This document shows positions 16,267 through 17,218 of a stretch of 64,000 bases of DNA, piece after piece. Source of the stretch: a phage. The stretch is taken from the sequence record PZ452602.1; one strand, 5' to 3'. A program made the translations under genes and the position numbers. The notes beneath the pieces were generated by a model, which saw nothing but the letters and a program-made list of their open reading frames with translations, was not told where the DNA came from and searched no databases. The first letter of the stretch is position 1. Each line of letters opens with the position of its first letter.

Positions 16267-16614
16267 TCAATACGGTTTAGCATCAAATTTTCTCTCAATT
16301 TCAGGTGTGAAATATAATTCTTTACCGCGTTTGGAAAAGCGACCAATAATATGATAATTATTCTCATCAAACGTAATATTACCAATATCCATAGCTTTCA
16401 ACCAAATATCGATATTTCTATCCAGCTTTATGTCAAAATTCCAATACGGAGAACTATTACCGAAAATACTGCAAGCGGATTCAGTGAAACAACTGCTATA
16501 AATCTTGTCTTTAGGAACTACTAATTGATAGACACCTTTAATAAACTGAGGACCCTGCCACTTTGGCTGTTTCGCGTCTTTTTCTAATAGAATAGGGTAA
16601 TAATTAAAATTCAT
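16267..16614 (-). CDS. hypothetical protein inserted between frd and td (115-123 aa)
   Basis: Track ORF 16267-16638; ATG at 16614 (or 16638) lies inside the last codons of frd; no motif recognised. Confidence 0.5.
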
Positions 16615-17218
16615 ATTTTCCACCCCGCGGTATTTCATTTTTATATACTGATTCCGTAAGAGTTGTTACTTCATCTATTTTATACCAATGCGTTTCAACC
16701 ATTTCACGCTTGCTTATATCATCAAGAAAACTTGCATCTAATTGAACCGTTGAATTAACACGATGCCTTTTAACGATGCGAGAAACAACTACTTCATCTG
16801 CATAAGGTAATGCAGCATATAACAGAGCAGGCCCGCCAATTACACTTACTTTGGAATTCTGATCAAGCATAGTCTCAAATGGTGCATTAGGGCTTGACAC
16901 TTGAATTTCGCCGCCAGAGATGTAAGTTATATATTGCTCCCAAGTAATATAGAAATGTGCTAAATCGCCGTCTTTAGTTACAGGATAATCACGCGCAAGG
17001 TCACACACCACAATATGGCTACGACCAGGAAGTAATGCAGATAATGACTGGAACGTTTTAGCACCCATAATCATAATTGTACCTTCGGTACGAGCTTTAA
17101 AATTCTGGAGGTCCTTTTTAACTCGTCCCCATGGTAAACCATCACCTAAACCGAATGCTAATTCATTAAAGCCTTCGACTGTTTTAGTTGGAGAATAAGC
17201 GAATACCAATTTAATCAT
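16604..17218 (-). CDS. frd: dihydrofolate reductase
   Basis: DHFR motif [10 protein letters not shown]; starts [10 protein letters not shown] as recalled for T4 Frd; C-terminus about 11 aa longer than recalled T4 protein. Confidence 0.88.

Follow-up and report, generated by a model that had tools for sequence, protein, structure and literature searches.

Introduction

Small genes with a patchy distribution among close relatives are a familiar part of T-even phage genomes. The seg (GIY-YIG) and mob (HNH) genes, which are abundant in these genomes, are small and lie between metabolic genes, as with SegG by gene 32 and MobE by nrdA. Other small genes occupy accessory slots such as the ip locus, in which conserved flanks surround alternative, unrelated genes; the cargo of the ip locus consists of anti-restriction proteins, and polymorphic T-even slots with conserved flanks hold anti-defence proteins (PMC12373910). 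The subject of the present analysis is a small open reading frame (ORF) between frd, the gene for dihydrofolate reductase (DHFR), and td, the gene for thymidylate synthase. It was found in a 64,000-nucleotide stretch of the phage sequence record PZ452602.1 (the window), in a T-even (Tequatrovirus-type) segment in which nrdA, two small ORFs, td, the ORF and frd all lie on the minus strand. The ORF shares with the seg and mob genes its small size, its place between metabolic genes and its patchy occurrence among close relatives, and with the ip locus and similar slots the arrangement of conserved flanks around alternative contents, here a member of PHROG 1928, a member of PHROG 9550 or nothing.

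A preliminary description of the window had reported an ORF of 115–123 amino acids (aa), at coordinates that proved accurate (Table 1), and had regarded it as an insertion of mobile or accessory cargo at a junction otherwise conserved among T-even phages. The account favoured here, to which as a whole a probability of about 0.8 is given, is that the ORF is an ordinary member of PHROG 1928, ancestral at the frd–td interval, deleted in T4 and not mobile, and that its product may be a small binding protein. The family would have been inherited between frd and td together with these flanking genes, often as two tandem paralogues. In T4 and a few relatives, a clean deletion between 8–9-bp repeats, (T)AAATGAAA, spanning the frd stop and the td start would have removed the gene and recreated an ATGA overlap of frd and td. 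Homologous recombination in frd and td, the conserved flanks, would swap alleles at the slot, while members would be lost by microhomology deletion at start–stop overlaps. To judge from its anatomy, the gene is probably co-transcribed with frd and td and its translation coupled to that of frd; its 13.6-kDa product may, with low confidence, act by binding something.

A conserved gene family

The pattern of substitution indicates that the ORF is a real protein-coding gene and not a chance reading frame. All 12 differences from T2 are synonymous, while comparison with Mosigvirus gives a synonymous distance (dS) of 0.83 and a non-synonymous distance (dN) of 0.033, a dN/dS of 0.04; the corresponding dN/dS values for the flanking genes are 0.22 for frd (codon alignment) and 0.07 for td. 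At the protein level, identity between Tequatrovirus and Mosigvirus is 94% for the ORF, 86% for Frd and 80% for Td.

The gene is already known: its annotation as a conserved hypothetical gene goes back to the RB32 and RB14 genomes. Its protein is 100% identical to RB14 ‘RB32ORF229c’ and to the T2 and T6 proteins, and position, strand and flanking repeat are also the same; the GenBank entry for RB14 describes RB32ORF229c as ‘flanked by 9 bp repeat’. The designation RB32ORF229c is used in RB14, RB51 and T6, and the gene appears as a hypothetical protein in T2, T6, RB14, RB32, RB51, AR1 and others, and as Shfl2p237. A literature search returned nothing relevant on RB32ORF229c, phrog_1928 or the frd–td junction, and the gene is mentioned neither in Petrov et al. 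2010 nor in an accessory-gene screen of 2025. Product names elsewhere are inconsistent and unsupported: across MZ501106, MZ501047, MZ501065, PV204681, OK272476, OK274152 and NC_054937 they include ‘putative homing endonuclease’, ‘putative glucose-1-phosphate adenylyltransferase’ and ‘dihydrofolate reductase’ (PV204681, in which the labels are off by one gene).

The homology search proposed in the preliminary description thus yielded a family, and the structure search, discussed below, no solved relative. The match to the phrog_1928 profile (E = 1.1e-35) covers residues 12–119 of the 123-aa reading; the PHROG is of unknown function. With tblastn, 555 phage records match, 363 of them at 90% identity or more (including T2, T6, RB6, RB27 and AR1), while the remaining 192, all below 60% identity, come from Klebsiella, Enterobacter, Citrobacter, Pectobacterium and Erwinia phages. 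The family is small: a search of 1.8 billion proteins gave 17 representatives, and a profile search 23 clusters; an 838-aa match in the representative search, P0019, proved to be a TPR-repeat protein and was set aside as spurious. All members are about 100–150 aa long, lack a Pfam domain and lie on T4-like contigs wherever the contig is long enough to judge. Six residues do not vary among 25 sequences, that of the window protein among them (Q16, W19, G27, G91, K95 and G97), and the window protein carries both family motifs, Q-x-K-W near the N-terminus and G-R-F-x-K-x-G in a C-terminal hairpin.

Position across T4-like phages

Contexts were inspected in the window and at 12 loci of other lineages. 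In every one, a homologue lies between frd and td on the same strand, in the order frd, one or two family members, td. The lineages comprise Kanagawavirus, Mosugukvirus PM2, Jiaodavirus Mineola, Roskildevirus FBB1, Moonvirus CF1 and Marfavirus P545, together with Mosigvirus, Edwardsiella phage PEi20 and two metagenomic T4-like contigs. Across the six genera from Kanagawavirus to Marfavirus, identity to the window proteins is 31–47% for the ORF, 42–48% for Frd and 68–75% for Td, Kanagawavirus being nearest to the window in the ORF and sharing first place in Frd; by this comparison the ORF has diverged about as far as Frd and in parallel with its flanks, a vertical pattern. In most of these genera a second ORF in the interval is a paralogue of the first (blastp E = 1e-7 to 1e-12, same PHROG).

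No second copy or paralogue was found elsewhere in the 64-kb window by hmmsearch, and among the homologue loci inspected there was neither a family member at a locus other than frd–td nor an adjacent recombinase. On this comparative evidence the frd–td interval is the resident position of the family, inherited with its flanks across many Tevenvirinae genera. The view of the ORF as an insertion at an otherwise conserved junction is therefore not upheld, since homologues fill the same slot in every other Tevenvirinae lineage examined.

In a separate comparison of RB14 with the window, the small-ORF proteins are identical and td is strongly different (dS about 1.0, dN 0.12; RB14 td lies at 3418–4278 of locus L004). 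This divergence points to a mosaic recombination breakpoint near the ORF/td boundary.

Alternative occupants of the interval

About 538 records carry a T-even-type frd. The ORF follows it in 363 of these, an unrelated ORF of 68 aa in 135, and nothing separates frd from td in 32. The preliminary description's ‘accessory’ is borne out by these proportions; its ‘mobile’ is not, the gene being confined to one locus and having no nuclease motif. The 68-aa ORF (MSNKLKVKDV..., PHROG 9550) is joined to its neighbours in the same ATGA / TAATGA manner and is linked to a variant 5' end of td (MKQYQFLIKDILENG). A gene identical at 67 of 68 residues is present, unannotated, in Dhakavirus JS10, and in Marfavirus P545 and metagenomic locus L016 the order is frd, orf, orf2, 68-aa ORF, td. 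Weaker homologues of the 68-aa ORF (about 43% identity) occur in phAPEC8-like phages.

Judged from these three alleles within Tequatrovirus, the frd–td interval behaves as a small cassette region and the gene as dispensable accessory content. It differs from the ip locus in having three alleles only, and in that its main occupant is old, highly conserved and not rapidly diversifying. Unlike the ip proteins, the ORF product has no capsid-targeting leader, and any counter-defence role here would be putative.

Predicted structure and function

The predicted product is a soluble, mildly basic protein of 13.6 kDa (pI 8.5). As the preliminary description had stated, it has no recognisable motif: scans against Pfam, NCBIfam and the curated defence-related profiles of PADLOC gave no match (for PADLOC none at E up to 1), none of the 25 family members matched a Pfam family at a meaningful level, and a profile search of the Protein Data Bank (PDB) sequences returned only spurious dynein matches at E about 0.01. 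An AlphaFold2 model built from a 19-sequence alignment has a mean pLDDT of 90.9 and a pTM of 0.84. It consists of eight short strands and one helix, with a long C-terminal beta-hairpin that bears the G-R-F-x-K-x-G motif. Foldseek found nothing below E = 0.3 for this model in the PDB; significant matches in BFVD were confined to uncharacterised proteins of T4-like phages (the PM2 paralogue, Serratia phage Muldoon and three more entries), followed by weaker matches to Erwinia phage Cronus and Aeromonas phage Ah1 (E = 0.005–0.008). By every test available the protein appears to be non-enzymatic.

Small polymorphic early genes of T-even phages whose role is known encode mostly host-takeover or counter-defence factors. 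As the protein is small, lacks catalytic motifs, is dispensable and is allelically replaced, it is tentatively suggested to work by stoichiometric binding, as a dispensable factor in host interaction or counter-defence that would be expressed early, along with the nucleotide-metabolism genes. Ranked at low confidence, this role would come before that of a partner of Frd/Td or of the deoxynucleotide (dNTP) complex, and that in turn before an OB-like nucleic-acid binder.

Several observations weigh against the favoured account as a whole. Purifying selection as strong as this, and synteny kept strictly across many genera, are atypical of fast-evolving arms-race genes and would suit a housekeeping partner of Frd and Td just as well. 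Coupling to frd and the use of the downstream start codon (16614) are both read from the sequence. An insertion that duplicated 9 bp would leave sequences identical to those left by a deletion, so that the polarity of the change in T4 rests on parsimony, and the 8-mer that flanks the gene is common in the genome, with 22 copies in 64 kb where about 16 are expected.

A rather doubtful alternative assigns the protein to the thymidylate module, as a dedicated partner that would scaffold or regulate the phage dNTP-synthesis complex by binding Frd and/or Td there. In all contexts seen the gene lies with frd and td without exception, start–stop overlaps on both sides would imply stoichiometric co-translation, and between Tequatrovirus and Mosigvirus the protein is more conserved than either Frd or Td. 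T4, however, on which the definition of the dNTP synthetase complex was based, lacks the protein, and about 30% of Tequatrovirus records either lack the gene or carry the unrelated ORF. All small ORFs of the region keep their order, which makes synteny by itself weak evidence, and the protein has no likeness to folate- or nucleotide-binding folds. In its fullest form, in which PHROG 1928 would be a structurally new, obligate companion of the thymidylate-synthesis pair (Frd-X-Td, often Frd-X-X'-Td) acting as scaffold or regulator of the dNTP machinery, the idea is unlikely.

A small single-stranded nucleic-acid binder with an OB-like fold, for example a translational or mRNA regulator of the frd–td operon, is distinctly unlikely. 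The order of elements in the AlphaFold2 model (three strands, helix, beta-hairpin) resembles an OB barrel, and the weak structural matches are enriched for OB folds (HIN, Teb1, S1, SSB, RPA and RuvA domain I). The residues that never or hardly vary (W19, Y29, F93, R92 and K95) are aromatic and basic, and the pI is 8.5. The structural scores, however, are at noise level and offer a lead only.

The T4 junction

The statement in the preliminary description that frd and td overlap directly in T4, with the ORF absent, is accurate: frd (145109–145690) and td (143235–145112) overlap by ATGA with nothing between them. The distance from GTATAT to CAATACC is 427 nt in the window and 8 in T4, which has only AAATGAAA there. 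In T2 and T6 the left junction reads GTATA TAAATGAAA TAACG, followed by the ORF and then by GGTAC TAAATGAAA CAATACC, whereas T4 reads GTATA TAAATGAAA CAATACC. The comparison of this junction across T-even phages, which the preliminary description had proposed, thus resolves T4 as the T2/T6 sequence minus one repeat copy and all that lies between the copies, one of the three alleles found.

T4 most likely lost the gene by deletion between the direct repeats, a polarity drawn from parsimony. All other genera examined, including Mosigvirus, carry the gene; T4 frd is no outlier, its synonymous distance to frd of ORF-bearing Tequatrovirus phages being 0.09–0.15, against 0.07–0.15 among the ORF-bearing phages themselves; and the exact T4-type empty junction is rare, about half of its 32 records being T4 stocks or sub-sequences. 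As the 8-mer is so common in the genome, the repeat would fit chance microhomology of the start-codon context better than a transposition footprint. The preliminary description had named conservation of the ORF in T4 and its relatives as the finding that would overturn it; most relatives do carry the gene at this position, and T4 itself does not.

The reverse polarity is very improbable. Under it, the T4 state would be ancestral for Tequatrovirus and a segment of 416–419 nt would have been inserted by illegitimate recombination from another T4-like genus, duplicating TAAATGAAA. Such an event is indistinguishable in sequence from deletion between 9-bp repeats; T-even genomes are mosaic, and the near-identity of the 68-aa allele with the gene in Dhakavirus JS10 indicates that exchange between genera does occur at the slot. 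Besides the occupancy of the slot in every other genus examined, the rarity of the empty junction and the position of T4 frd within the range of ORF-bearing phages, the left repeat speaks against it: in Mosigvirus and the window this copy lies inside an extended frd frame that is found in other genera too, and so is not a fresh duplication.

The ATGA overlap of T4, a case of translational coupling between frd and td, follows the same start–stop logic that ties frd to the next gene in the window and in other genera; it differs from the window in joining frd to td directly. In other genera the small gene or genes are tied to td by a start–stop overlap, where the window and other Tequatrovirus phages have a 45-nt spacer instead.

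Comparison with homing endonucleases and mobile elements

The ORF is barely tenable as the cargo of a mobile element, in this case a free-standing homing endonuclease gene that would have entered the frd–td junction. What speaks for this reading (a segment flanked by an 8–9-bp direct repeat and precisely missing in T4, the label ‘putative homing endonuclease’ in at least three GenBank records of the BASEL collection, the abundance of seg and mob genes in T-even genomes, and a G-V-Y-Q-L heptad in the protein that resembles GIYQI of I-TevI) is outweighed. No GIY-YIG, HNH or other Pfam or NCBIfam domain is present in any of the 25 family members; hhalign of the family profile gave a probability of 0.4% against I-TevI, with only the seven residues of the heptad G-[IV]-Y-Q-[IL] aligned, and 0.05% against MobE. 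A nuclease-like fold was not matched in structure searches of the model, and 115 aa leave no room for a DNA-binding domain. The fixed locus, a divergence like that of the flanks and a dN/dS of 0.04 also argue against it, and set the ORF outside the class of seg and mob genes. In the counts of Petrov et al. (Karam group), T2 has one homing endonuclease gene and RB69 none (PMC2993671); T2 carries the ORF, so that it was not counted as such by specialists either. The homing endonuclease reading is thus largely refuted, and the GenBank label is without support.

Of the traits of an insertion element, the flanking repeat of 8–9 bp is present, but it forms a start-codon context common in the genome and is equally explained as the substrate of the T4 deletion. 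Multiple copies and a transposase or recombinase were not found, the window holding one copy and the inspected homologues having no adjoining recombinase.

A genuine homing endonuclease insertion does occur in the neighbourhood elsewhere. In a metagenomic T4-like contig (L018), a GIY-YIG/NUMOD3 homing endonuclease gene lies between td and nrdA at 4211–4942 (minus strand), opposite in strand to its neighbours, in the place taken by nrdA.1/nrdA.2 in the window.

The end of frd and the start of the small gene

The preliminary description had also noted that frd is about 11 aa longer at its C-terminus and that the ATG of the ORF is embedded in its last codons, and both points are confirmed: Frd has 204 aa in the window and 193 in T4, and both candidate ATGs fall within the 11-residue tail. 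Before the stop the window reads TATAAAAATGAAA, and T4, T2 and T6 read TATAAATGAAA, the difference being two extra A in a short A-run. Its final codons are TAT AAA AAT GAA ATA CCG CGG GGT GGA AAA TAT GAA TTT TAA, against TAT AAA TGA in T4, T2, T6 and TadeuszReichstein. The exact window-type junction with a long Frd is a minority allele, found in 11 records representing eight phages. As a long frd is also present in RB14, one of these phages, where it is annotated at 615 nt, and in Mosigvirus (Frd of 205 aa, tail NEIATGGKYEF, with an A-run as long as that of the window), and as frd likewise extends into the start of the next gene in other genera, the long Frd is a real variant and not an error, and is probably the older form.

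The start of the small gene in use is likely to be the downstream ATG (16614), giving the 115-aa form with the start MNFNYY. Only this form is conserved, since a reading from the upstream ATG ends after one further codon, AAA, in T2, T6, TadeuszReichstein and Mosigvirus (M-K-stop). The equivalent of the downstream start is kept in T2, T6, Mosigvirus and metagenomic locus L016. It is preceded in the window by a Shine-Dalgarno-like GGTGG, with GGCGG at the equivalent place in T6, T2 and Mosigvirus; no Shine-Dalgarno-like sequence was read upstream of the ATG at 16638. The suggested coupling to frd follows from the position of the downstream ATG, preceded by GGTGG and 8 nt upstream of the frd stop. 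Fusion of Frd and the ORF by programmed frameshifting was rejected as no frame relation is conserved, the ORF being +1 to frd in the window and +2 in T2/T6.

Other features of the region

Table 1. Features at and around the frd–td interval; positions are those of the window unless a locus (L) is named
Feature	Position	Strand	Basis or remark
nrdA	12541–14805	-	ORF listing, Pfam
td (thymidylate synthase), intronless, 286 aa	15361–16221	-	Pfam Thymidylat_synt E = 1e-92; downstream neighbour of the ORF
Right direct-repeat copy AAATGAAA, across the td start codon	16216–16223	-	
45-nt spacer from ORF stop to td ATG, with promoter-like hexamers	16222–16266	-	Gone from T4 together with the ORF
Sigma-70-like TTGATT-N18-TATTAT	16270–16241	-	Sequence scan
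ORF, 123-aa reading (from ATG at 16638)	16267–16638	-	ORF listing
Small gene, probable true reading from the ATG at 16614 (115 aa and stop)	16267–16614	-	RB32ORF229c / PHROG 1928 family
frd (dihydrofolate reductase), 204 aa, begins MIKLVF	16604–17218	-	Pfam DHFR_1 E = 4e-19; alignment with T4, T6, RB14
C-terminal extension of frd relative to T4, last 11 codons, overlapping the small-gene start	16607–16639	-	Alignment
Allele-specific in-frame upstream extension MKYRGVEN, giving 123 aa, probably unused	16615–16638	-	
Shine-Dalgarno-like GGTGG, 5 nt before the ATG at 16614	16620–16624	-	Read from sequence
Left direct-repeat copy AAATGAAA (9 bp, TAAATGAAA, in T2 and T6)	16633–16640	-	
Run of five A, 2 nt longer than in T4, T2 and T6; moves the frd TGA out of frame	16638–16642	-	Junction alignment
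68-aa ORF (PHROG 9550), examples	L011 2804–3010; L012 1700–1906; L019 2185–2391		

The spacer between the ORF and td, 45 nt in the window, measures 13 nt in Mosigvirus. It could be a candidate td-proximal promoter, which T4 would lack, to judge from its hexamers. A scan for sigma-70 promoters and terminators found promoter-like sites in the region to be no commoner than in shuffled sequence, so that the spacer site is a lead only. By eye, a MotA-box-like TTAGCTTCA lies upstream of TATAAT/TAATTT in the same spacer (16222–16270). An Rfam scan of the region gave a single sub-threshold match to a fly long non-coding RNA, taken as noise. The td genes of T4 and T6 contain a group I intron with I-TevI; the intron is independent of the small ORF, T6 having both, T4 the intron only and the window the ORF only.

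Between frd and frd.1 the window has an 81-aa ORF (PHROG 3183, 17218–17463, minus strand), absent from T4, and a 110-aa ORF (Pfam DUF7247, 17475–17807, minus strand), absent from T4 and RB14. The frd–frd.1 gap of T4 is only 71 nt, so that T4 frd is stripped of neighbours on both sides. On the far side of td, the homologue of nrdA.1 (Pfam DUF4326, 14796–15062, minus strand) is listed with a TTG start only, at 88 aa (annotated at 108 aa in T4, at 95 in T6), and is overlapped upstream by a 57-aa ORF with an ATG start (14950–15123); the nrdA.1 of the window may be a frameshifted or truncated allele.

Concluding remarks

As a discovery the ORF matters little, being a conserved hypothetical gene that has long been annotated. 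The label ‘putative homing endonuclease’, which is spreading in GenBank for it, should not be propagated. For the T-even phages, the textbook T4 arrangement, with frd and td overlapping by ATGA, appears to have arisen secondarily by deletion and not to be ancestral. For the family, a strongly constrained (dN/dS 0.04) and confidently modelled protein with no solved relative, always found between DHFR and thymidylate synthase, makes a well-defined target for study. Should the unlikely reading as an obligate companion of Frd and Td prove true, the family may have escaped study because T4, the model phage, is a deletion mutant for the gene.

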